From the NCBI GenBank assembly GCA_937893495.1, contig CALBIE010000023.1:1-60022 (forward strand): a stretch of 60,022 bases of DNA. The letters run 5' to 3'. The notes beneath the pieces are model-generated. The model saw nothing but the letters and a program-made list of their open reading frames with translations. It was not told the DNA's origin and did no database searches. The stretch is from an uncultured Verrucomicrobiales bacterium (GTDB taxonomy: Bacteria; Verrucomicrobiota; Verrucomicrobiia; Limisphaerales; JAYPXF01). The translations under genes and the position numbers were made by a program. Positions 3,208-12,259 of the stretch are shown in pieces. Numbering within the stretch: position 1 is the first letter of the stretch; each line of letters starts with the position of its first letter.

Positions 3208-4992
3208 TTAGAGTTCCACGCGACTGCGCGTAGACCCCATCAGCTTGGGAATATCCCGGATATGGGCACGGTCCTTTTCCTTGTCCTCTTCCGACAGCTT
3301 ATCCCACGGGACAATGCACTTGTGAGTCATCTGTTTCTTGTCGGTCAGTTCGCCGTAGCTGAATCCCTGCAACACCTTGTCCGCCATCCAGCGGTCATGT
3401 TCCATCCGGGCCAGGGCCTCCATTTGTTCCTCCAGTTTTTCACCGGTCGGGATGCCGTCCTTGTCCCGGCCCGTATCGCAGCCGACGGTGAGACATTTTA
3501 TGATGATGTGCTCCGCAGCGGCACGATTGGCCTCCTTGAGATACTCCGGAAGTTTCTGCCACGATTCCCGGGCGGCGGGATCGGTCGGTGAACGATTGCC
3601 TTCCATGAAATGAATGTGAATCGCCTGGGCCAGTCCGTTTATTTTCGTGCGACAAATGGCCGGCAACGAGAACGTCTCCTGAAACAACCCGAATCCATTC
3701 AGGTTTCGCAGCGGGTCCTCTTTCTTGCGATTGTCCACGAGGAATTTGTTGATGCCGGCTGATTGGGTCAAGCGAACGAAAACCCGTATTTCGTCCTCAT
3801 CGGCGTGACGGATCATCTCGTTGATGTCGATGGCCAAATCGAGACTTTTGGCGTCGGTCTCGCGGCAGACGATATGCGTCAACAGCTCCCCATCGGTCGC
3901 CAGCAATTCCTGCACGGCCTGGCGGGCAACGCGACTGCCCGGGGCAGCGGGAATCACCTTCAGATCCAGCACCCGCGAACACCGGCTCAGCCGTTCGTCG
4001 GTAAACCCGTCCCCCTCGGATGCCGAATAATCATCAAGACAGGCATCAATCAGGGTGACACGGGTCTGAAGACCGTTGGCAAAATGGGCCAGTCGGGCCA
4101 GTTGAAAAAGAATGGCGCGCCCCACGGTTCCAAACCCGTGAATGACGACGTGCGCCCGTCGTTTTTCATCGGATGCGAGGGGCAGGCATCCTTCACTTTT
4201 ACGGGCCAAGGCCACCATCTTTTCCCACAGGTCGCGCGCGGCGGCCTGACTGATGTTGGACACACCAATCTGGAGATTTGCCCTCGGCTCCAGATACCCG
4301 GTATGAATCGGAATGAGATCGCTCAGTTTGAGATCACTGATGCTCAGGTAACAATCCAGCCGATCCAGCGCGCCATCCTCAGCCGCCTTGAGGCGTGCCT
4401 CCACGATGGCATGAACAATCTCCAGGTTGACGTTGTCATCTCGCGTGAAGACGAACGCTTCTTTTGCCTGAAGGATACCGGCCGCGAACAACGCGGAGGG
4501 GTCGGCGGCATTTCCCGTAATCAGGCTGATGCCTTGTTTCTTGCAGGCAGCCAGCACATCCGGTTCCGGATTGGAATCAATTGCCGCAACGGTTTGTCCG
4601 GCTTCGGACCGATCCAGGATCAGGAATCGGCCGCGCTGGCCCAGACCACAAACAACCGTGTGACCGTGCAATCTCCGGCGTCGCATCCGTTCGTGAAATC
4701 TCTCCAATAGAACCAGCGCTCCCTGAAGGACCGCATAGCCCGTCAAGGCCGGCGCCAGGAACCGCGCAATGTTTAATTCCAGGGGCAACAACTGTGAGTC
4801 CCCGACTCGTAACTCCATCAGGAACAGGCTCAGGGTATTGAAAATGGCGTCATCAATTTGGAGTGGGCCGCCGGGTGGCGGGAGCATGAGAAAACCAACC
4901 AGCCCCATGCTGAACGCGGCGACGGCAAGCGCGCCGAAAACGAAGGGGAGAAAACCCATCAACCGCCGCCAGATACGTCCATCAAAGCCCAT
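3208..4992 (-). CDS. Membrane protein: N-terminal TM helices, two Rossmann (TrkA-N/RCK-like) domains, C-terminal RyR domain
   Basis: 594 aa. N-terminal hydrophobic helices are present. Gly-rich Rossmann loops are VVCGLGQRG and IHGFGTVGR. The C-terminus EALARMEHDRWMADKVLQGFSYGELTDKKQMTHKCIVPWDKLSEEDKEKDR matches the RyR (PF02026-type) consensus. Confidence 0.8.
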   Translation of the reverse strand: MGFDGRIWRRLMGFLPFVFGALAVAAFSMGLVGFLMLPPPGGPLQIDDAIFNTLSLFLMELRVGDSQLLPLELNIARFLAPALTGYAVLQGALVLLERFHERMRRRRLHGHTVVCGLGQRGRFLILDRSEAGQTVAAIDSNPEPDVLAACKKQGISLITGNAADPSALFAAGILQAKEAFVFTRDDNVNLEIVHAIVEARLKAAEDGALDRLDCYLSISDLKLSDLIPIHTGYLEPRANLQIGVSNISQAAARDLWEKMVALARKSEGCLPLASDEKRRAHVVIHGFGTVGRAILFQLARLAHFANGLQTRVTLIDACLDDYSASEGDGFTDERLSRCSRVLDLKVIPAAPGSRVARQAVQELLATDGELLTHIVCRETDAKSLDLAIDINEMIRHADEDEIRVFVRLTQSAGINKFLVDNRKKEDPLRNLNGFGLFQETFSLPAICRTKINGLAQAIHIHFMEGNRSPTDPAARESWQKLPEYLKEANRAAAEHIIIKCLTVGCDTGRDKDGIPTGEKLEEQMEALARMEHDRWMADKVLQGFSYGELTDKKQMTHKCIVPWDKLSEEDKEKDRAHIRDIPKLMGSTRSRVEL

Positions 4993-5037
4993 GGTGGAGT
5001 CAACTAACAGAATTTGACGACAAAAGCCAATCTACGA

Positions 5038-7014
5038 TCACGAGGGAGAAACAATTGGCCGATCCAGGAAAACAACTCGCCAATCGAGTGATTCGTTCAC
5101 CAGCAACTCGGCGACATTTGTGGTCAGGGCGGTCACTTCACGGGAAGACGGTGCCTGACTGGTCTCCGCCGACGCCTCGGAAAATTTCTTCCTCAGCTCA
5201 ACGACTTCCTCAAGAATCTGTTTAAGCTGTCCAACCATGGCATGAGAGCGTTTGGCGATTCGTCGAAATTCGCCCTGATTGTTGATACCGGCAAGGGCCG
5301 CGCCCAGCGCCGGGAGGAAACCACAAAAGAAAGTCAGCAGCGAGGGGAGCCAGGGTGGGAACGACTTGTCAAATCCGAGTGATGGAAACAGCGGAAGCAC
5401 GTGAATTCCGCAGGAGATAAGCGTGAGTGCCAGAAGGGTCACGCCGAATGAATGCAATCGATGCTCGATGTTCTCGCATCGCCGTGCCGTTGACCCATGG
5501 TAATCAACCTGACGTTCCAGAAGTTCAGCCGATTGATCCAGTGATTCAACCAGTTGTTTCGAATCGAGTCGGGTGGACGGCAGACCAATATCACGCTCAA
5601 CCGCGCGAATATACGAGGCAACCCAGGTTGATTCCGGATGATCATACTCTTTCAAGTGCCCTGCCGTTGGGGGAAACGGGCGCTGACCTCCCAGCGGGGC
5701 GACCAGTCGCAAATGCCGCACAAATTCCGCGGCGATCCGGTAGTCGAGCCAGCGTTCATGCCAGCGCTTCCGTCGTCCGAAATGGACGAGTCCAAGAATG
5801 GTCAAGATGATGAATAACTCAGAGACAATGCAGACGCCCTCAATCCAGTGATGATGCCCCTGTTGGCCGATTCCAAAAGGTAACAAGGCCATGAATACCG
5901 CAGCAGCAGCCAGAAGAAAGGCGAGGACAAACGCGCTGCGATAGGTATCCGAGTAGATCACCGCGAGCTTGTCCGGCCACGCGTAAAACGGGCGCAAGCG
6001 GTTGACCACCTTTGCCGCGGGTGTGGATTCGTCGCGAGGCCACGCGTATTCCACGGATTCTTCAAAATCCGGGACTGACAACGGTGGGATTCCAACTCGG
6101 TTGTTCCCGACAAAATCGCGAAAACATTTCCAGACGATGGCCGGGTTAAAAAGTGGTTTTCGCTCCGAATAAAAGTCACGAATCGTGAGTAGCGACCGCG
6201 CGTTCTTGGGTGGCCCGCCTCGCCCCTCTTGTTCATCGATGTCGGAAAACCCAACGGTTCTTTGAATGAAATCCTTAATGTCCTGCGGATTCTGATCCGA
6301 AGACGGAGTCACACGGCCATTTTTCGATTCCGGCAGCAACCTGCCCCCACAAACGACTTGCCACGAATGAGGCGAATGGCCATCGATCCACACTGTGGGG
6401 ACGCCCCTGCGAACGGCTTCGTCCAGTGTTTCCTCCGTTCCGCCTCGTTTACCAAGACGCTCTCCGTCCCATACCACAATCAACAAGTCCGCCTGATTCA
6501 ATACTATATTCCCTGCCGCACCATAGGCGGCACCTGAATCATTCCGGCTACCATCCAACTCAAATTTTCTCAGGCTGGATTTCCTGCTCGCCGATTCAAG
6601 GAGACTGCGAAAGGAATTCAACGAATCCGGTTCCTCTGCCCGGTCGCCAATAAAATCCTTCTCGTATTCCTCCTGATGAAACGGCATCGGAACACAGAGT
6701 TCGTAATCGAGTTTGAGTGCCGCTTTGGCAAAAATTCGGTCAGTCCCTTCAGCGAGAGGAGAAACGGCCCGGAGCACGGGCTTCGAATCATCGAATAAAT
6801 CACTTTGCTTGTCGCCGAGTCTCACGACTTCCTGGTGAATTGCATTCAGCATGCTGGCGATTACCTCCTCAAGCCTGGTCGTGTCACCTGGCAGCCGGTT
6901 CGGGCGATGACCGACGACCCCGACCCGGAATACCAGCCGTGGCTTGGGCGGTCGTCGTGTTTTGGAGTATTCCGCTTCCATTTGTCCTCGGTGAATAAAG
7001 CCTGATCGGAGCAT
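5038..7014 (-). CDS. SLOG (YpsA/DprA-like Rossmannoid) domain fused to SLATT/DUF4231-type 2TM modules (4 TM helices)
   Basis: The N-terminus has VGVVGHRPNRL and PLAEGTDRIFAKAAL (GHRP and GxDxxA SLOG-type motifs). TM pairs lie at about aa 362-414 and 524-578. The first pair is followed by RWHERWLDYRIAAEFVRHL, which is DUF4231-like. The track start at 7020 is TTG; ATGs occur at 7014 and 6981. Confidence 0.7.
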   Translation of the reverse strand: MLRSGFIHRGQMEAEYSKTRRPPKPRLVFRVGVVGHRPNRLPGDTTRLEEVIASMLNAIHQEVVRLGDKQSDLFDDSKPVLRAVSPLAEGTDRIFAKAALKLDYELCVPMPFHQEEYEKDFIGDRAEEPDSLNSFRSLLESASRKSSLRKFELDGSRNDSGAAYGAAGNIVLNQADLLIVVWDGERLGKRGGTEETLDEAVRRGVPTVWIDGHSPHSWQVVCGGRLLPESKNGRVTPSSDQNPQDIKDFIQRTVGFSDIDEQEGRGGPPKNARSLLTIRDFYSERKPLFNPAIVWKCFRDFVGNNRVGIPPLSVPDFEESVEYAWPRDESTPAAKVVNRLRPFYAWPDKLAVIYSDTYRSAFVLAFLLAAAAVFMALLPFGIGQQGHHHWIEGVCIVSELFIILTILGLVHFGRRKRWHERWLDYRIAAEFVRHLRLVAPLGGQRPFPPTAGHLKEYDHPESTWVASYIRAVERDIGLPSTRLDSKQLVESLDQSAELLERQVDYHGSTARRCENIEHRLHSFGVTLLALTLISCGIHVLPLFPSLGFDKSFPPWLPSLLTFFCGFLPALGAALAGINNQGEFRRIAKRSHAMVGQLKQILEEVVELRKKFSEASAETSQAPSSREVTALTTNVAELLVNESLDWRVVFLDRPIVSPS

Positions 7015-7163
7015 GACCAAACTGGAAATGGGTAACCAGCAAATTCAGTCAGAGATCAACGCAAGCGACATCCCTTGCCGGTTTGACACGAGTGGAGAGC
7101 TTGTGGGACGGTCACCCGACCAAGTAGCGAGTGGGATCTGTTCAACCGGTCATTTCATCAAAT

Positions 7164-8579
7164 ATGCTGATACGAGTAACCTGCGAATGTGGACAAAGTT
7201 TTCACATCGATGATGTTCACAAAGGGAGCCAGTTCGAATGCTCCGAATGTGGCGAAAACCTGACGGCGGACGGCGAGTTGATATCCAGCCACGATGTCTT
7301 TATCAGTCACTCGACCAAGAATAAAACCATCGCCGACGCGGTTTGCGCGACACTGGAAGCTCACGGAATCCGTTGCTGGATGGCGCCGAGAGACATCAAA
7401 CCCGGCGCTGATTGGGGGGAATCAATTCTCGATGGAATCGAGAACTGTCGCCTGTTTCTTCTGGTATTTTCCTCGCACGCCAACGACTCGCGGCATGTGA
7501 TGCGCGAAGTTGAAAGAGCGGTTAACAAAGGACTGTACATCATTCCTTTCCGCATTGATGATGTCACGCCTTCCAAATCGATGGAGTACTTTCTGAGTTC
7601 CCAGCATTGGCTGGATGCGATGACGTCTCCCCTGGAAAAACATCTTGAGGAGTTGGCCGGGATCATCGCCAATCTGCTGGAGGGAAACCAAGGCTCGGCG
7701 AAGGGCCCATCCGCGGAAAATACTAAAGTCGCATCACAGCCAAAACGCACCAAAAGCAAATCGAAAACCATTCTGGCGGCCGTATCCCTTTTCATCGTGG
7801 TGCTGGCTGCGGCTCTGGTAATTCCAAAGTTTTTTAAACCTGCTGAAAAAAGTCCTCCGGGAAACTCATCGACACCGGTGCCGAAAAAAAGCGCATCTGA
7901 AACAAAGATACTCGAAGCCCTCGACAAGCCGTTCAAGACTTATTTCATTGATACGCCCCTCAGCGATGTTGCGTCCTGGATTGCAGATGCATTCAAGGTC
8001 AACGTGGTTATCGACAGGGCATCACTGATGTCAGAAGGATACGATATTGATGAGCCGATTACCATCGATCAGAAAGAGATTTCCCTCCGGTCCGCTCTAA
8101 ACCTGATGTTGGACGCCGTTGGCGGGGGCTTGGATGGCGGGTTGAGTTTTGTCGTGCGGGATGAGGTTCTCTTGATTACGACCAAAAACTACCGTGATTC
8201 CGTGGGTGCCGAATACCTGGCGCCCAAGCCTGACAAGATTGAAGGACCGGTCCCGCAAAAGCTGATCGATTCGCTGAACAAGGCGCATTCTGAGGAGTTG
8301 GTGGATTATCCCCTCGAAGAACTCCTGAACATGTATCAAGCCAAATACGGATTGGCCTATTCAGTCGATCCAAACTCCTTGGTGGCAATATTGAACATGG
8401 GCGCCAATCCAATGGATCCGGTGACCCTGAAGGTCGACAACATTTCTCTCCGATCCATCCTTCGTTTGCTTCTCCTTCAAGTTGAAGCCCGATACGAAAT
8501 TCGCAATGAAGTCGTCTATATCATGGACTGGGAGGAACCGGCGACCGACAAGAACGCGGTTATGAAAAAGGCGAAATAG
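7164..8579 (+). CDS. Zn-ribbon + TIR domain + single TM + two STN/secretin-N-like repeats
   Basis: The N-terminus carries CECG...CSECG. The TIR_2 pattern is DVFISHSTKN..GIRCWMAPRDIKPGADWGESI..LFLLVFSSHANDSRHVMREVERAV. The TM helix is ILAAVSLFIVVLAAALVIP. The C-terminus has two repeats of a ...ISLRS(A/I)L.L.L...V..EV..I motif. ATG at 7164; the track start at 7131 is GTG. Confidence 0.85.
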   Translation: MLIRVTCECGQSFHIDDVHKGSQFECSECGENLTADGELISSHDVFISHSTKNKTIADAVCATLEAHGIRCWMAPRDIKPGADWGESILDGIENCRLFLLVFSSHANDSRHVMREVERAVNKGLYIIPFRIDDVTPSKSMEYFLSSQHWLDAMTSPLEKHLEELAGIIANLLEGNQGSAKGPSAENTKVASQPKRTKSKSKTILAAVSLFIVVLAAALVIPKFFKPAEKSPPGNSSTPVPKKSASETKILEALDKPFKTYFIDTPLSDVASWIADAFKVNVVIDRASLMSEGYDIDEPITIDQKEISLRSALNLMLDAVGGGLDGGLSFVVRDEVLLITTKNYRDSVGAEYLAPKPDKIEGPVPQKLIDSLNKAHSEELVDYPLEELLNMYQAKYGLAYSVDPNSLVAILNMGANPMDPVTLKVDNISLRSILRLLLLQVEARYEIRNEVVYIMDWEEPATDKNAVMKKAK

Positions 8580-8611: not shown

Positions 8612-9400
8612 ATGACTGAACACGACGTTTTCATCAGCCATTCGTCGAACGATACCGAAACGACGGACAAAGTCAGACAAACTCTGGAAGCCCGCGGTAT
8701 CACCTGCTGGATTGCGCCGCGCGACATCGAGGCAGGCGCGGACTGGGGCGAGGCCATTGTCAGCGGCATCGAACGAAGTCGATTGTTTCTTCTGATCTTT
8801 TCCGAGCGGGCGAATCAATCGCAACACGTGATGAGGGAGGTCGAGCGAGCGGTGAATCGGGGACTCTACATCATCCCCTTTCGGATCGATGCGGTCGTGC
8901 CATCGAGGTCAATGGAGGATTTTGTTGTGAAGAATGAAGTAATCTTGATCACAAGGAAATCCACCAAGGAGGCACTGGGAACAGACTTCATTCCTTCCCC
9001 CGAAGACAAAATCATTGGAAAGCGGCCGGTGGCGTTGATGGAGACACTGGATCACATTGTTTCCGTGGATTACGAGAATGCCCAGTTTCCCGCTGTCCTC
9101 GCCGACCTCCGTTCGAGTTACAATCTGATCAGTTCGATTGACAAGAATTCCGGAGTCGCCCTGGAAAAACCGGAAGACCTGTTGGTTACCTTGAGGGTGA
9201 ACGAGTTGCCACTCCGGTCAGTCCTGCGTCTGCTCTGCGATCAGGTCGAAGCCCGGTATGAGATTAGAAACGGCGAGGTCTTTGTTTTCGACGCACGGCA
9301 CCTGGAATCGACCGCTTTACGAAGGATGAAACTGAAGGAGGCCGCATATTCGAAACAGATGAAATTATTGGAAGAATTGACAAAAAAGAGGAAGAAATAG
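8612..9400 (+). CDS. TIR-domain protein, truncated paralog of the preceding gene (no TM, one STN-like repeat)
   Basis: MTEHDVFISHSSND...GITCWIAPRDIEAGADWGEAI...HVMREVERAVNRGLYIIPFRID is collinear with the upstream protein. After SRSMEDF it jumps straight to VVKNEVILITRK, matching VVRDEVLLITTK of the paralog. Confidence 0.85.
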   Translation: MTEHDVFISHSSNDTETTDKVRQTLEARGITCWIAPRDIEAGADWGEAIVSGIERSRLFLLIFSERANQSQHVMREVERAVNRGLYIIPFRIDAVVPSRSMEDFVVKNEVILITRKSTKEALGTDFIPSPEDKIIGKRPVALMETLDHIVSVDYENAQFPAVLADLRSSYNLISSIDKNSGVALEKPEDLLVTLRVNELPLRSVLRLLCDQVEARYEIRNGEVFVFDARHLESTALRRMKLKEAAYSKQMKLLEELTKKRKK

Positions 9401-10528: not shown

Positions 10529-12259
10529 TCAGATCAAGGTGAACGCCGCGTCGAGATAAGCCTGCATATACGTCGGCACTCGCGCCTTCTTACTCTTGCT
10601 CTTCGGTTTCTGAACCGGTTTCGGCATCGGACGTTTCGCGGTCTCGACAATTCCATTGGAAAACTCGAGGACATGGCCCTGATGAATCAGCCAGTGCAGA
10701 TCCGCATTGACTGCCCTTTGCACCGGGGTCATCTCCGGTTCGCTGCGGGCTGGAGGTGCCGGACTTGCGGCGGCGGGTTCAGCATTCGTATCAGTTTCTG
10801 ATGCAGACTGCGCTTCGCCGGTCTTTTCCGTTGGTTCGGTGGGCTCAGCCGTGGCTTCCGGCGCAGGAACTGGCGCGGTAAGTTCTATCTTCGGGGCCGG
10901 CGCGAACTGGTCAAATATCTGTCGGCGGGTGCAGCGCTTCGTTGCGTCAATAAACTCGATGATGCTGCGAATGCTGTCCGACACCGGCGTGGCTTCCATG
11001 TCGAGAAAGTGCGGACGCGATACGGAAACGTGCGTTACACTTTTGTCTTTCTTGAAAAACTGAAGACCATGTTTCGCAAATTCATCGCACAGCGCGGTCA
11101 CTATCTTAATCGGAAAGCGGCGTTGATCCTCGAAGGCTCGTTGAAACAAGCGGCGCAGCGTCGGGTCTGGAACTGCCTGGGCGTCTTTTCCGGAGATGTT
11201 TCGCGAATCCACGCTGACGACGATATTGGGCATGTGGACGTCGCGAAAGTGCTTCTCGACCTCATCACGACTGCCAAGCTTCAACGTCTCCGGGACGTTC
11301 AGCACGGTGTATTCGATCTTGAAACTCTGATTCTCGATCCATTTCTGCACCACCTCCTCGTCACGTACGATCTTGACGCGTGATTTGTAAACATCGAACG
11401 GCATGTTCTTGAATCGCTCACTGTGCAACAGGACGAGGTTTTTCTGGTAATCGTGATAGTTGGGTGGCCCGAGTATCGTGCCGCTCATACCGCACTGGGC
11501 AACAAAGGTGTAGGTGCCCTTGGGCGGATCGACAGGCGTCTTGTCAGTCTGGTAAAACGCGGCGAAATGTTTGCGTAACAGGTGCCGCCTCGCATCTTCC
11601 TGCGACAGCCAGAGGGTGTCGTCGAATTCGCACAGGAATAATGGCTGTTGAACCTTGTCTTGTCTCCTCACCACGCTAAAGCGAGCACGAAATCGGTCGC
11701 CCGACTTGAGCACTAAATGCGCAATGTCAAAAACCGGATAGGAACGGCCGGTCAATTTGATTTGCCTCGAAATGGCCGCAATGCCGTCGGAATCCGGAAG
11801 GATGGCGGTGTCCACGTCCGGCAATGGCGCCGGTTCGTCCCGCCGATCACGTGGACCATCAAAGCGATCACGCGGCCCACGATCGCGACCCGGCCCGCGC
11901 CCGTCTCTGTTAAAGGGCCGGTTCCCCTGGCGGTTATCGCCGCGTTGCCCCGGACCCGAATCCCGCCGCGCTCCTGGTCCCGGTCTCGGGCCATCGCGAC
12001 GCGGGCCATCGCGACGTGGTCCGCCCCGATCACCTCGCGGGCGCGATTCCTCGTCACCCCGATACTTATCGAATTTTTTTTCATCCGGCGACTGCTTCGC
12101 CCAGGCGGGCAGAAGTTCCAGTTCCAGATCCAGTTCCACTTTATTCAACGTACTCATCAACTCGGTCTCCGGGCTGCAATTCCGGCTTACCTCAAAAGAG
12201 TTGCGAGAATGGAACCTCGCCGAAGGGAATGCAAGTGCGCCTTTGGCCCTGATCGACAT
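10529..12259 (-). CDS. Hypothetical protein with Arg/Gly/Asp/Pro-rich low-complexity N-terminal region
   Basis: Long ORF with coding-like composition. It contains RPRGDRGGPRRDGPRRDGPRPGPGARRD...GRGPGRDRGPRDRFDGPRDRRD. An alternative ATG at 12157 gives MSTLNKVELD. I recognise no family. Confidence 0.6.
   Translation of the reverse strand: MSIRAKGALAFPSARFHSRNSFEVSRNCSPETELMSTLNKVELDLELELLPAWAKQSPDEKKFDKYRGDEESRPRGDRGGPRRDGPRRDGPRPGPGARRDSGPGQRGDNRQGNRPFNRDGRGPGRDRGPRDRFDGPRDRRDEPAPLPDVDTAILPDSDGIAAISRQIKLTGRSYPVFDIAHLVLKSGDRFRARFSVVRRQDKVQQPLFLCEFDDTLWLSQEDARRHLLRKHFAAFYQTDKTPVDPPKGTYTFVAQCGMSGTILGPPNYHDYQKNLVLLHSERFKNMPFDVYKSRVKIVRDEEVVQKWIENQSFKIEYTVLNVPETLKLGSRDEVEKHFRDVHMPNIVVSVDSRNISGKDAQAVPDPTLRRLFQRAFEDQRRFPIKIVTALCDEFAKHGLQFFKKDKSVTHVSVSRPHFLDMEATPVSDSIRSIIEFIDATKRCTRRQIFDQFAPAPKIELTAPVPAPEATAEPTEPTEKTGEAQSASETDTNAEPAAASPAPPARSEPEMTPVQRAVNADLHWLIHQGHVLEFSNGIVETAKRPMPKPVQKPKSKSKKARVPTYMQAYLDAAFTLI

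Follow-up and report, generated by a model that had tools for sequence, protein, structure and literature searches.

The locus described here raises the question of what two adjacent genes for putative ligand-sensing membrane proteins do in an uncultured Verrucomicrobiales bacterium, and with which partners they do it. We analysed them within the window, that is, the whole stretch of 60,022 nucleotides of contig CALBIE010000023.1. On balance, and with modest confidence, we favour reading the locus as a Thoeris-like conflict system in which TIR-based nucleotide signalling acts on two membrane effectors.

Organization of the locus

A sequence-only reading of this DNA had described two co-directional genes 45 bp apart, and ORF analysis of the window bore out both their limits and their spacing. 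Genes A and B lie on the minus strand. Two TIR genes lie directly upstream of A in divergent orientation, TIR1 being 110 bp from A; these genes were absent from the sequence-only reading.

5038 to 7020, minus strand: gene A, SLOG plus four-transmembrane (4TM; SLATT/DUF4231) protein (ORF, homologs, AF2 model)
3208 to 4992, minus strand: gene B, channel-like membrane protein with a 2TM pore-like region, tandem RCK domains and an RyR domain (ORF, Pfam, AF2, Foldseek)
7131 to 8579, plus strand: TIR1 (Pfam TIR_2, hydropathy)
8612 to 9400, plus strand: TIR2 (Pfam TIR_2, BLASTP against TIR1)

The ORF of gene A, read from 7020 to 5038, encodes 660 aa from a TTG codon. The database copy of A (P0001) starts at an ATG 13 codons in; the real start is probably this ATG, at position 6981, which gives the 647 aa of the database copy. 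The ORF of gene B (4992 to 3208) encodes 594 aa. Both are real genes, backed by families of homologs, and PADLOC returned no match for either. The flanks of the window consist of housekeeping genes, except for one PDC-S01 candidate gene.

Gene A joins a SLOG domain to four transmembrane helices

More than 420 full-length homologs of A were found at 43-54% identity, and the family has 278 confirmed stretches in a species-level genome set. The homologs bear the RefSeq name 'DUF4231 domain-containing protein', taken from a Caballeronia plasmid homolog. The AF2 model of A (pLDDT 86, pTM 0.85), together with alignments and hydropathy, divides the protein as follows.

6346 to 6939, minus strand: SLOG Rossmannoid domain of the Smf/DprA-LOG type, aa ~28-225 (Foldseek, invariant motifs)
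5707 to 6006, minus strand: first 2TM unit and the amphipathic helix after it, SLATT/DUF4231-like, aa ~339-438 (profiles, hydropathy)
5065 to 5562, minus strand: second 2TM unit and C-terminal helices, aa ~487-652 (model helices, hydropathy)

The earlier assignment of a SLOG domain to A is upheld by its fold rather than by a Pfam threshold, which no Pfam model reaches for this domain. Foldseek placed the N-terminus of the AF2 model with ShosA (8zva) and DprA (3uqz, 3uqz_A) at probability 1.0, and the weak sequence matches, to DNA_processg_A, YAcAr, YpsA and cpYpsA, all fall in SLOG-superfamily families. Every motif quoted in the sequence-only reading is present in A and B; those of A are VGVVGHRP at aa 33-40, PLAEGTDRIFAKAAL at aa 88-102 and RWHERWLDYRIAAEFVRHL at aa 419-437. 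The conserved motifs of the SLOG domain are GHR, (P/A)LAEGxDR, DF, AYxxxG, WDG and GGT.

The first 2TM unit has transmembrane helices at 364-382 and 396-414. Its proposed SLATT/DUF4231 identity holds at the level of the family, in which DUF4231 was matched by 32 of 32 members and SLATT_1 by 8 of the 32; the window's own protein scores below threshold (Pfam DUF4231, E 0.006; NCBIfam SLATT_1, 7.8e-6). The name SLATT reportedly comes from the SLOG-SLATT association described by Burroughs et al. in 2015. The second 2TM unit (helices at 527-545 and 561-579) gave only faint PspC-TM and holin-like matches, and hhalign detected no relationship between the two 2TM units of A (probability 0.1).

We predict that the SLOG domain of A is a sensor of a TIR-made nucleotide. 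It could instead be an enzyme of the LOG-like glycosidase or phosphoribohydrolase kind, making or processing the signal; the true receptor would then be the RyR domain of B, with SLOG and B as the functional pair. In proposals by Aravind and colleagues, SLOG and TIR-fold domains generate signals, and the subfamily of A keeps the LOG-like 'GGT-x-[DE]' and other invariant polar residues. Additionally, standalone SLOG proteins of this subfamily, about 150-210 aa long and without the SLATT part, lie directly beside B-like genes (L084/85, L086, L130, L144, L155, L159, L166 and the Sinorhizobium plasmid pEm1132b). However, no catalytic residues could be assigned in the SLOG domain of A, the only characterised Thoeris case (the SLOG domain of ThsA) is a non-catalytic 3'cADPR sensor, and the 4TM fusion fits the sensor-effector logic of other systems. 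We consider an enzymatic role improbable and retain the sensor reading.

Gene B resembles an RCK-gated channel

At E<=1e-30 the B family counts 978 cluster representatives, and almost all are about 570-620 aa long. Foldseek related the AF2 model of B (pLDDT 82) to TrkA, GsuK, MthK, Slo1 and RyR3; for GsuK, MthK and TrkA, E values were 4e-9 to 1e-7, with up to ~560 columns of full-length GsuK aligned. Judged from this model, B combines a GsuK/MthK-like 2TM pore that lacks a K+ filter with a pair of RCK domains and, at its C-terminus, an RyR domain.

4669 to 4980, minus strand: pore-like module, aa ~5-108 (model secondary structure, GsuK alignment)
4258 to 4659, minus strand: RCK1/KTN (TrkA_N) domain, aa ~112-245 (Pfam TrkA_N, Foldseek)
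3673 to 4158, minus strand: RCK2, second Rossmann-type domain, aa ~279-440 (model, Foldseek)
3214 to 3648, minus strand: RyR (Repeat12/RyDEP-like) domain, aa ~449-593 (Pfam, Foldseek, tblastn, residue spacing)

In the model, the pore-like module consists of TM1 (17-35), a short re-entrant helix (46-59; 'DDAIFNTLSLFLME') and TM2 (71-108), which carries a conserved 'ARFLAP'. Where a TVGYG filter would be expected, B has the loop 'LRVGDSQLLP' and no K+ selectivity filter. Because this 'filter' loop is variable across the family and the pLDDT of the transmembrane region is moderate (54-77), the conducting pore of B is only putative.

The two Rossmann domains that had been noticed in B are present and correspond to tandem RCK domains, which align with the TrkA gating ring and GsuK. 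RCK1 was matched by Pfam TrkA_N (50.3 bits against a cut-off of 23.8; E 3.7e-13). It contains the motif VVCGLGQRG at aa 113-121, with a GxGxxG (G116, G118, G121) whose glycines are invariant in the family and an acidic D139 at the end of strand 2. Foldseek aligned it with KTN bound to NAD+ (1lss), TrkA bound to ATPgammaS (4j9v) and GsuK bound to ADP (4gx1) or NAD (4gx2). We predict that RCK1 is a site for an adenine dinucleotide or for ATP/ADP. RCK2 carries the motif IHGFGTVGR at aa 283-291.

The RyR domain of B is clear by Pfam (56.6 bits against a cut-off of 27.4; E 3.1e-15), as had been claimed, and Foldseek aligned it with Repeat12 of RyR3 (residues 848-1055, 6uhb_B). The motifs EHDRWMADKVLQGFSYGE and HKCIVPWDKLSEEDKEKDR fall within aa 531-575, and the domain shows an EANRA helix, H532-x-x-W535, H557 and K573-D574. 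The sequence-only reading also held that bacterial RyR domains have no assigned function. This does not apply to phage members: two preprints from 2026 report that phage RyR-domain proteins either cleave the TIR-made 2'cADPR, 3'cADPR and cADPR or bind these isomers with nanomolar affinity (PMC13232231; 10.64898/2026.06.04.730250). For this domain, tblastn matched 177 phage records carrying RyR proteins. The spacing of its ligand residues (+3, +25, +42) equals that of H75/W78/H100/D117 in RyDEP and H129/W132/H154/D171 in RyR Tad, and 125 members of the B family keep H532 in 121 cases, W535 in 110, D574 in 94 and H557 in 55. We predict from these residues that the RyR domain of B binds (or hydrolyses) a cADPR-type signal.

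Such a site would also suit a built-in regulator. B might sequester or hydrolyse the TIR signal as RyDEP and RyR Tad do, setting the activation threshold or resetting the system, with A as the sole killing effector. The equivalents of the RyDEP catalytic dyad, H532 and D574, are kept. Host-encoded RyR-only mini-proteins occur in such neighbourhoods (in L017, a 96-aa ORF with A on one side and a TIR-STAND gene on the other; in L068, a 94-aa ORF), as do RyR domains fused to non-membrane modules (AAA/STAND in L072, L016 and L018; TPR-S in L063), which implies that the recurrent element is the RyR domain, not the channel. Yet a sponge or hydrolase needs no 2TM and tandem-RCK scaffold, and this scaffold is kept across ~1000 family clusters. 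Only one of the eight phage homologs tested was catalytic although the residues are conserved. In one locus (L083), moreover, two B-like genes are followed by a TIR_2 gene, with A absent and no other effector visible; since B sometimes accompanies a TIR without A in this way, it can be the sole candidate effector. We regard a purely regulatory B as possible but unlikely and treat B as a candidate effector below.

The TIR genes

TIR1 begins with a zinc-ribbon-like CxxC..CxxC, followed by its TIR_2 domain (aa 54-171, nt 7290-7643; Pfam 2.3e-24), a single transmembrane helix by hydropathy (213-231) and two C-terminal repeats that are predicted to lie outside the membrane. We predict that TIR1 is a signal generator and sensor. 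TIR2 is an internally deleted paralog in which, by BLASTP, TIR1 residues 51-155 are joined to residues 340-466. Absent from TIR2 are the last part of the TIR domain, the transmembrane helix and the first C-terminal repeat, and Pfam TIR_2 matched it at 1.1e-21 over profile positions 1-98 of 122. Against the NCBIfam type III ThcB4 model, the TIRs gave matches far below the cut-off only.

TIR domains of the TIR1 type that adjoin A are 50-63% identical across phyla, and A itself is ~33-44% identical in those loci. Against our reading, many partner TIRs carry fused STAND, TPR or WD40 modules; AVAST/Avs-type TIRs, which have such fusions, were left out of the signalling-TIR set of Yirmiya et al., according to the accessible part of that preprint (10.64898/2025.12.03.692087).

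Genomic linkage of TIR, SLOG and RCK-RyR genes

Of 73 A loci, 31 had a TIR gene no more than 1.5 kb from A. When distances were taken from domain to domain, 28 of 80 loci (25 of the 66 that were at least 8 kb long) had a TIR within 2 kb. Around A, TIR density was 1.8 per 10 kb in the nearest 500 bp and only 0.25 per 10 kb at distances of 5-10 kb. Nine of the 80 loci had a B-like gene at most 2-2.5 kb away from A. Conversely, 80 independent B-anchored metagenome loci had a TIR within 2 kb in 23 cases and an A-type SLOG in 14; one or the other was found in 20 of the 41 loci of at least 8 kb. Loci with TIR, A and B together occur repeatedly, with the genes in either order. Against our reading, 32 of the 66 A loci that were 8 kb or longer, about half, had neither a TIR nor a B-like gene nearby, and no A-like gene was found upstream in the locus of the closest B homolog (L002). 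From these counts we define the module as TIR + SLOG(-SLATT) + RCK-RyR. The unit is wider than the two-gene module that had been described: its most consistent partner is a TIR gene, of which there are two here. A physical complex of A and B found no support, and each gene also occurs with a TIR without the other.

It is very hard to credit that A and B are unrelated membrane genes that adjoin by coincidence, although the majority of A loci lack B and the majority of B loci lack A. The A-B adjacency recurs with gaps of 4-50 bp, although the proteins are only ~25-35% identical, in Planctomycetota, Acidobacteriota, Gammaproteobacteria and Bacteroidota as well as on many metagenome contigs, and the SLOG subfamily of A adjoins B as a standalone gene too. 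The low identities argue against one recently transferred element behind this recurrence.

We likewise give little weight to the idea that the module is a housekeeping ion-homeostasis or stress unit responsive to NAD+/ADPR, with the TIRs as envelope or environment sensors and no anti-phage role. The transmembrane helix and extracytoplasmic repeats of TIR1 would fit it, as would the negative PADLOC result, the usual service of RCK channels in K+ homeostasis and the housekeeping flanks of the window. In Caulobacteraceae, A is fixed in the chromosome in conserved housekeeping synteny, adjoining IMPDH and RsmB. However, B has no K+ selectivity filter, the partner genes are typical of conflict systems (TIR-STAND-TPR, WD40, patatin, cpYpsA, DUF4062), and phage RyR-domain counter-measures to TIR signals exist. 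The distribution is also patchy over many phyla, plasmids included; A loci were found in Planctomycetota, Acidobacteriota, Proteobacteria, Gemmatimonadota, Dadabacteria, Bacteroidota and on a Caballeronia plasmid.

A model for the locus

The adjacent TIR genes supply the missing signal generator and place the locus in the Thoeris-like class. The analysis above shows how the genes are built, which folds and domains they encode, that the ligand residues are conserved and that the three kinds of gene are linked in genomes; our model starts from there. Signal identity, binding, gating and defence we infer for this locus.

By homology, membrane-anchored TIR1 would respond to phage infection or an envelope cue by converting NAD+ into an ADP-ribose-derived messenger, probably a cADPR isomer. 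This signal would bind the cytoplasmic SLOG domain of A, and the 4TM SLATT-type part would then oligomerise or open and breach the membrane; this step is proposed by analogy with the sensing of 3'cADPR by the SLOG domain of ThsA and with the SLATT effectors of CBASS and type VII Thoeris. The same signal may bind the RyR domain of B through H532/W535/H557/D574 and gate the 2TM pore through the tandem-RCK ring. As B has no K+ selectivity filter, its opening would dissipate ion gradients non-selectively. RCK1 may also read NAD+, ADP or ATP. The membrane would end up depolarised, and infection would be aborted or growth arrested. It is plausible that A and B are both nucleotide-ligand-sensing membrane proteins, as the sequence-only reading had it, and its domain assignments were right. 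If the model is true, the RCK-RyR channel-like protein is a previously undescribed second effector of a Thoeris-type system.

Comparison with known systems

One close counterpart is a candidate. Yirmiya et al. (bioRxiv 10.64898/2025.12.03.692087, December 2025, Tables S1 and S2) list TIR + 'SLOG and 4TM' as a candidate Thoeris configuration which, compared by its description in the accessible part of the preprint, has the architecture of A, with a TIR beside a SLOG and four-TM effector, and is likewise predicted to be a membrane effector activated by a TIR signal. Two such systems were tried in E. coli, one from Streptomyces sp. GKU 895 and one from Ca. Nitrospira nitrosa, and neither protected the cells, as reported there; their TIRs are at best weakly similar to those of A and B loci. 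The accessible text and supplements contain no relevant mention of RyR, TrkA, RCK, Rossmann or potassium (10.64898/2025.12.03.692087); the only mentions of 'potassium' there are in buffer recipes. Our literature search turned up no account of host RCK-RyR proteins as parts of TIR systems. The earlier claim that a SLOG-SLATT protein paired with a TrkA-N/RyR protein is undescribed survives literature and PADLOC checks; as to novelty, the RCK-RyR pairing stands, whereas TIR + 'SLOG and 4TM' had already been catalogued.

Validated Thoeris effectors include SLATT (type VII) and an ion channel (type X), and dual-effector operons exist. In type VII, a TIR producing canonical cADPR is paired with ThsH, a SLATT-type effector thought to oligomerise into a membrane-breaching assembly upon signal. 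The annotation of ThsH is SLATT alone, and its ligand pockets are predicted to lie where SLATT protomers adjoin, whereas A has a separate N-terminal SLOG domain, a second, unrelated 2TM unit and sub-threshold SLATT scores. Type X pairs a TIR with an 'ion channel' effector, ThsK, validated once in B. subtilis (10.64898/2025.12.03.692087). B is also channel-like and TIR-linked, but the description of ThsK, as far as the accessible text gives it, mentions no RyR or RCK domain. A type VII TIR had no match among A and B loci, nor did the TIR of type X, a different, small family, in the window or any A or B locus.

The SIR2-SLOG protein ThsA of type I uses SLOG as the receptor for a TIR-made cADPR isomer, as we predict for A, but the output of A is a 4TM membrane module, not SIR2, and A matched no NCBIfam Thoeris model. 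The layout of type III, with several TIRs and a SLOG effector, is echoed by loci with several tandem TIR genes beside the SLOG effector (L145, L146, L152).

B is built like the RCK-gated K+ channels GsuK and MthK and the TrkA gating ring, with tandem RCK domains behind a 2TM pore topology. Its RCK1 has the GxGxxG...D nucleotide motif, and GsuK structures hold ADP and NAD. Unlike these channels, B has a variable loop in place of the TVGYG filter, an added C-terminal RyR domain and a context of TIR/SLOG conflict genes instead of K+ transport.

Last, the RyR domain of B belongs to the same Pfam family (PF02026) as phage RyDEP (PMC13232231) and RyR Tad (10.64898/2026.06.04.730250) and shares their helical module (EANRA, HxxW, GWxYG, HPxLVPW, KDR). 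The phage proteins are small and soluble, form dimers and degrade or sequester the signal of the host, whereas the RyR domain of B is encoded by the host as a C-terminal appendage of a membrane RCK channel scaffold. Its position on this scaffold, beside a signal generator, implies host-side sensing or regulation.

A widespread gene pair in the window

Genes A and B are real, widespread genes. The sequence-only reading had described two co-directional ORFs, and both are found on the minus strand at the limits it gave, 45 nt apart, with every peptide motif quoted there present in the two proteins. The pair and the gene next to it are as follows.

7020 to 5038, minus strand: gene A, encoding a SLOG plus 4TM protein; 660 aa from a TTG start, or 647 aa in the database copy, which begins at an ATG 13 codons in
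4992 to 3208, minus strand: gene B, encoding a protein with a 2TM pore-like region, tandem RCK domains and a RyR domain; 594 aa
1925 to 3109, minus strand: AAA_14 plus DUF4143 ATPase, 98 bp downstream of B; PADLOC candidate PDC-S01 (1e-91)

Full-length homologs of A (43-54% identity) number more than 420, and 278 stretches were confirmed in one-genome-per-species contigs from many phyla. The B family comprises 978 representatives (50% identity clusters, E<=1e-30), almost all of them 570-620 aa long. The 45-nt gap between A and B contains no terminator-like site, and co-transcription is therefore plausible. A scan for promoters and terminators from 1.5 to 9.8 kb returned fewer sites than did shuffled sequences and is uninformative.

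The flanks of the window consist of housekeeping genes apart from the AAA_14-DUF4143 gene, and PSCyt1, PSCyt2 and PSD1 proteins, from which we read the stretch as planctomycete, are also encoded in the window. We considered the AAA_14-DUF4143 gene as a member of the system and rejected it, since it had no counterpart at the other A loci first examined; it is probably an independent neighbour. When A, B and their neighbours were searched with PADLOC, A and B had no match; the only matches were PDC-S01, for the AAA_14-DUF4143 gene, and generic TIR models. A scan against NCBIfam gave only SLATT_1 and TrkA matches, both below cut-off. Elsewhere in the window (10529-12259, minus strand) there is a 576-aa ORF without a Pfam family, whose N-terminus carries low-complexity Arg/Gly/Pro/Asp repeats (RGDRGGPRRDGPRRDGPRPG...).

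Gene A joins a SLOG fold to four transmembrane helices

An AlphaFold2 model of A built on 32 homologs (pLDDT 86, pTM 0.85) places an alpha/beta Rossmannoid at residues ~28-225. The only specific PDB matches of this domain were ShosA (8zva) and DprA (3uqz_A), both with a Foldseek probability of 1.0 over ~185 columns. Thus, the SLOG assignment made from the sequence is borne out by the fold, which is of the Smf/DprA-LOG kind. None of the curated SLOG-family sequence models reached threshold for the A N-terminus. The sub-threshold matches of the region were to DNA_processg_A (0.0065), YAcAr (0.0019), YpsA (0.02) and cpYpsA (0.076), and a profile of the region searched against PDB sequences gave YpsA at E 0.72 and otherwise noise; apart from that noise, all of the weak matches came from SLOG-superfamily families. 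The domain represents a SLOG subfamily without an existing model. Its invariant motif set is GHR, (P/A)LAEGxDR, DF, AY..G, WDG and GGT. VGxxGHR, SxLAEGxDR and WDG..GGT parallel the DprA motifs VGSR, SGxAxGID and SGS.

The remainder of A is helical and includes four hydrophobic helices by hydropathy (364-382, 396-414, 527-545 and 561-579). The first hairpin and the helix that follows score below threshold in A itself (DUF4231, 17.4 bits vs 24.7; SLATT_1, 25.9 vs 41). Among the 32 homologs, all match DUF4231 (best 1e-6) and 8 match SLATT_1; RefSeq names the homologs 'DUF4231 domain-containing protein'. Through its homologs, the first hairpin and next helix of A are a probable SLATT/DUF4231 unit; the second 2TM unit has no SLATT sequence match. 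An internal duplication of the two 2TM units was rejected because hhalign detected no relationship between them (probability 0.1).

Gene B resembles a GsuK-type channel with an added RyR domain

B matches the Pfam families TrkA_N (3.7e-13) and RyR (3.1e-15), both above cut-offs. Its model (pLDDT 82 overall, 54-77 in the membrane part) runs from TM1 through a short re-entrant helix, a loop and a long TM2 to two Rossmann-type domains and a four-helix C-terminal module. Foldseek aligned it with the TrkA gating ring (4j9v, 3.9e-9) and with full-length GsuK over ~560 columns (around 4e-8); MthK, Slo1 and Repeat12 of RyR3 (6uhb_B, 7e-5) were also matched. The two Rossmann domains noticed earlier are therefore confirmed, as a tandem RCK arrangement, and the RyR domain is supported both by this structural match and by a Pfam score of 56.6 bits against a gathering score of 27.4. 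The predicted architecture of B is a GsuK-type 2TM pore, at moderate confidence in the TM part, followed by tandem RCK domains and an added RyR domain.

B should not be classed as a potassium channel, because a TVGYG-like selectivity filter is absent and the loop at the filter position, ELRVGDSQLLP, is variable among homologs. It is possible that B is a non-selective pore, or that it is a non-conducting protein. RCK1 keeps GxGxxG and the acidic residue ending strand 2, which together form the usual adenine-nucleotide site.

The RyR domain of B carries the ligand residues of phage anti-Thoeris proteins

Two phage RyR-domain anti-Thoeris proteins have been described. RyDEP acts on 2'cADPR and 3'cADPR by cleavage or sequestration, using H75, W78, H100 and D117 (PMC13232231), and RyR Tad binds 3'cADPR, 2'cADPR and cADPR through H129/W132, H154 and K170/D171 (10.64898/2026.06.04.730250). 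The RyR domain of B aligns with phage RyR proteins along the whole module, and B residues H532, W535 (+3), H557 (+25) and D574 (+42) have spacing identical to that in RyDEP and RyR Tad, with K573 before D574 as K170 is before D171 in RyR Tad. In the RyR regions of 125 members of the B family, H532 is kept in 121, W535 in 110, H557 in 55 and D574 in 94. As all four ligand residues are present, the RyR domain of B is a candidate binder of cADPR isomers. Host membrane RyR proteins are discussed neither in PMC13232231 nor in 10.64898/2026.06.04.730250, and beyond these two phage-protein preprints we found no literature linking RyR with Thoeris, SLOG or SLATT.

RyR domains also occur in other proteins at the comparison loci, which carry A or B homologs from other genomes and metagenomes and are denoted by L-numbers. 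In a Planctomycetaceae MAG, a 96-aa RyR-only ORF (L017, 4970-5260, plus strand; HEVW...KEYDR) is flanked by the A homolog on one side and a TIR-STAND gene on the other, and it resembles a host-side equivalent of the phage RyR sponges or glycosidases. A similar ORF of 94 aa is found at L068 (3883-4167). AAA+/STAND NTPases of ~900-1000 aa with a C-terminal RyR domain are encoded directly upstream of A at L072 (6993-9779), just downstream at L018 (6693-9710) and ~6 kb upstream at L016 (841-3555). At L063 (3-2063), RyR is fused to a TPR-S 'sensor' repeat ~8 kb from A.

Host RyR-only ORFs and the conserved H/D dyad support a rival role for the RyR domain of B, namely that of a host-side sponge or glycosidase which sets a threshold for the signal.

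Two TIR genes adjoin the pair

The sequence-only reading described a two-gene module. The A-B pair stands, and the reading had missed two TIR_2 genes that are adjacent and divergent, upstream of A across a 110-bp gap.

7131 to 8579, plus strand: TIR1, whose TIR domain follows a zinc-ribbon-like N-terminus and precedes one TM helix and two C-terminal repeats
8612 to 9400, plus strand: TIR2, an internally deleted TIR1 paralog by BLASTP comparison

The zinc-ribbon-like motif of TIR1 (CxxC...CxxC; VTCECGQSF...FECSECGENL) precedes the TIR domain at residues ~15-45 (nt 7131-7290), and the TIR protein of L013 has a similar N-terminal extension. In TIR2, the counterpart of TIR1 residues 51-155 (68% identical) is joined directly to that of residues 340-466 (41% identical), so that the TIR domain is cut short at its end and both the TM helix and the first C-terminal repeat are gone. 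TIR2 may represent a duplicate in decay or a soluble modulator.

TIR, A and B are linked across phyla

We assembled 80 A loci from species-level genomes and, by a scan with a 6-sequence B alignment, 80 independent B loci from metagenomes. ORFs were scored with separate HMMs for TIR, for the SLOG and 4TM parts of A type, and for B. Stop-to-stop ORFs were preferred, since B went missing from 15 loci when ORFs were called greedily. TIR genes were identified with an iterated TIR-domain HMM and domain distances; a single-linkage 'TIR' cluster was contaminated by repeat proteins.

A TIR domain lies within 2 kb of A in 28 of the 80 loci (25 of the 66 that are at least 8 kb long), and TIR density drops with distance, from 1.8 per 10 kb in the first 500 bp around A to 0.25 per 10 kb between 5 and 10 kb. 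B-like genes are found within 2 kb of A in 9/80 loci. Around B, the same distance contains a TIR gene in 23/80 loci and an A-type SLOG in 14/80; of the 41 B loci that reach 8 kb, 20 have either of the two. Co-location of A and B, read initially from a single stretch, therefore recurs across phyla, and TIR is linked to both. Roughly half of the A loci lack both TIR and B in their vicinity.

Among the taxa represented are Planctomycetota, Acidobacteriota, Gamma-, Beta- and Alphaproteobacteria, Bacteroidota, Gemmatimonadota and Dadabacteria, and Caballeronia and Sinorhizobium plasmids are also among the loci. TIR1-type TIR domains beside A are 50-63% identical across phyla, against only ~33-44% for the A proteins of the same loci. 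Genes for TIR-STAND, patatin, cpYpsA and WD40 proteins occur at related loci; many of the partner TIRs are STAND fusions.

Three layouts recur. The first has one or more TIR genes with A and B, in both gene orders. For instance, L145, L146, L152 and L157 have two to four tandem TIR1-like genes (three or four at L145, L146 and L152) on the opposite strand, beside B and then A, each encoding a TIR domain, a TM helix and a large C-terminal region; this multi-TIR arrangement is reminiscent of type III Thoeris. The second has A and B on a contig without TIR (several Acidobacteria). In the third, B adjoins a standalone SLOG of about 150-210 aa. Such SLOGs, without SLATT, occur at L084/L085, L086, L130, L144, L155, L159, L166 and L174 (Sinorhizobium meliloti plasmid pEm1132b), and they share GHR/AEGxDR/WDG/GGT motifs with the A N-terminus. 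At L083, two B-like genes are followed by a TIR_2 gene, so that B occurs with TIR alone. The ORF upstream at L002 is unlike A.

The pairs of standalone SLOG and B support a rival division of labour, with the SLOG as a signal-processing enzyme and B as the receptor.

Several neighbourhoods have further features. Those of L086 and the Sinorhizobium plasmid also contain patatin and a TraG/VirD4-like ATPase. In Caulobacteraceae (L027, L033, L038, L040, L045, L048, L055 and others) the A homolog is syntenic with housekeeping genes, its neighbours being IMPDH, an RsmB-type methyltransferase and an FAD monooxygenase; at some of these loci a giant TIR-cyclase-STAND-TPR protein is encoded convergently, downstream of A. 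In Acidobacteria loci where no TIR was detectable, a conserved protein of ~1300 aa without a Pfam match follows the A-B pair (L073, 14197-18144; L078, 14329-18480; L082, 8604-12560), and it is perhaps a sensor or generator of another kind.

A model for the locus

The analysis shows how the genes are built, how the proteins fold, that the ligand residues are conserved and that TIR, A and B are linked; the identity of the signal, its binding, gating and a role in defence are inferred. The best-supported reading of the window locus is a Thoeris-like system. We propose that TIR1 would make an ADPR-derived nucleotide. A may sense this nucleotide via its SLOG domain and permeabilise the membrane via its 4TM SLATT-type part. 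B may sense it via the RyR domain and open a non-selective pore, and RCK1 of B could integrate NAD+/ADP/ATP. The weak points of this Thoeris-like reading are the failed heterologous tests of 'SLOG and 4TM' systems, the roughly half of the A loci with neither partner nearby, the many STAND-fused partner TIRs and the moderate confidence of the B pore region. A module with a non-defence signalling role is a rival explanation.

Bacteria, plants and animals all use TIR-derived cADPR isomers as immune signals, and a direct action of cADPR on animal ryanodine receptors has been debated for decades. The RyR Repeat12 fold was reported in 2026 to bind these nucleotides, in small phage decoys only (PMC13232231; 10.64898/2026.06.04.730250). 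We propose, tentatively and at rather less than even odds, that RyR domains encoded by hosts serve as the native receptors of cADPR-type nucleotides made by TIR proteins, that the one in B directly gates an RCK-type membrane channel, that RyDEP and RyR Tad are captured host copies, and that the SLOG protein and the RyR channel are two arms of one TIR-triggered membrane-collapse response. If so, B would be a prokaryotic prototype of 'cADPR opens a RyR-domain channel'. The B family (~1000 clusters) places a RyR fold with ligand residues on a simple bacterial channel scaffold, beside TIR genes, and so is of interest as a simple case in bacteria where a cADPR-type signal may open a channel by way of a RyR domain. 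If the RyR domain gates the pore, B would provide a tractable model of nucleotide gating through this domain and a new class of Thoeris effector, and a host origin of the phage counter-defence proteins would be likely.

Comparison with known Thoeris systems

Yirmiya et al. catalogued 29 TIR-effector configurations, whose validated types include type VII (SLATT effector ThsH, canonical cADPR) and type X ('ion channel' effector ThsK, with no signal assigned), and noted that dual-effector operons are rare (10.64898/2025.12.03.692087). The two 'SLOG and 4TM' systems tested in E. coli did not protect it (10.64898/2025.12.03.692087); a candidate of this kind may depend on its cognate TIR type or on a partner like B. 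RyR, TrkA, RCK and Rossmann are absent from the text and the examined supplements of that preprint, and the TIR1-type motif CWIAPRD and its variants do not occur in the part of its Table S1 that was searched (10.64898/2025.12.03.692087). As far as we found, the literature describes neither a host RCK-RyR channel-like protein in TIR/SLOG systems nor the pairing of such a protein with SLOG-SLATT.

The 4TM-SLOG, type I, III, VII and X TIRs of the preprint gave weak matches or none when compared with all of our loci. The catalogued 'SLOG and 4TM' TIRs matched weakly (E 3e-6 to 2e-4), one of them beside an A homolog (L063). All five plasmid-borne relatives of the type X TIR that we inspected are type II, with a Macro effector; L173 has no annotated effector gene.

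Compared with the catalogued effectors by description, A fits the unvalidated 'TIR + SLOG-4TM' configuration in its architecture: it has a SLOG fold, four TM helices and an adjacent TIR gene. B, compared with ThsK by description, is like type X only in being 'channel-like'. As in Thoeris-type systems, a TIR gene stands beside putative effector genes in the window, and the SLOG fold of A and the RyR residues of B are predicted to supply domains able to bind a TIR-derived ADPR-type signal.
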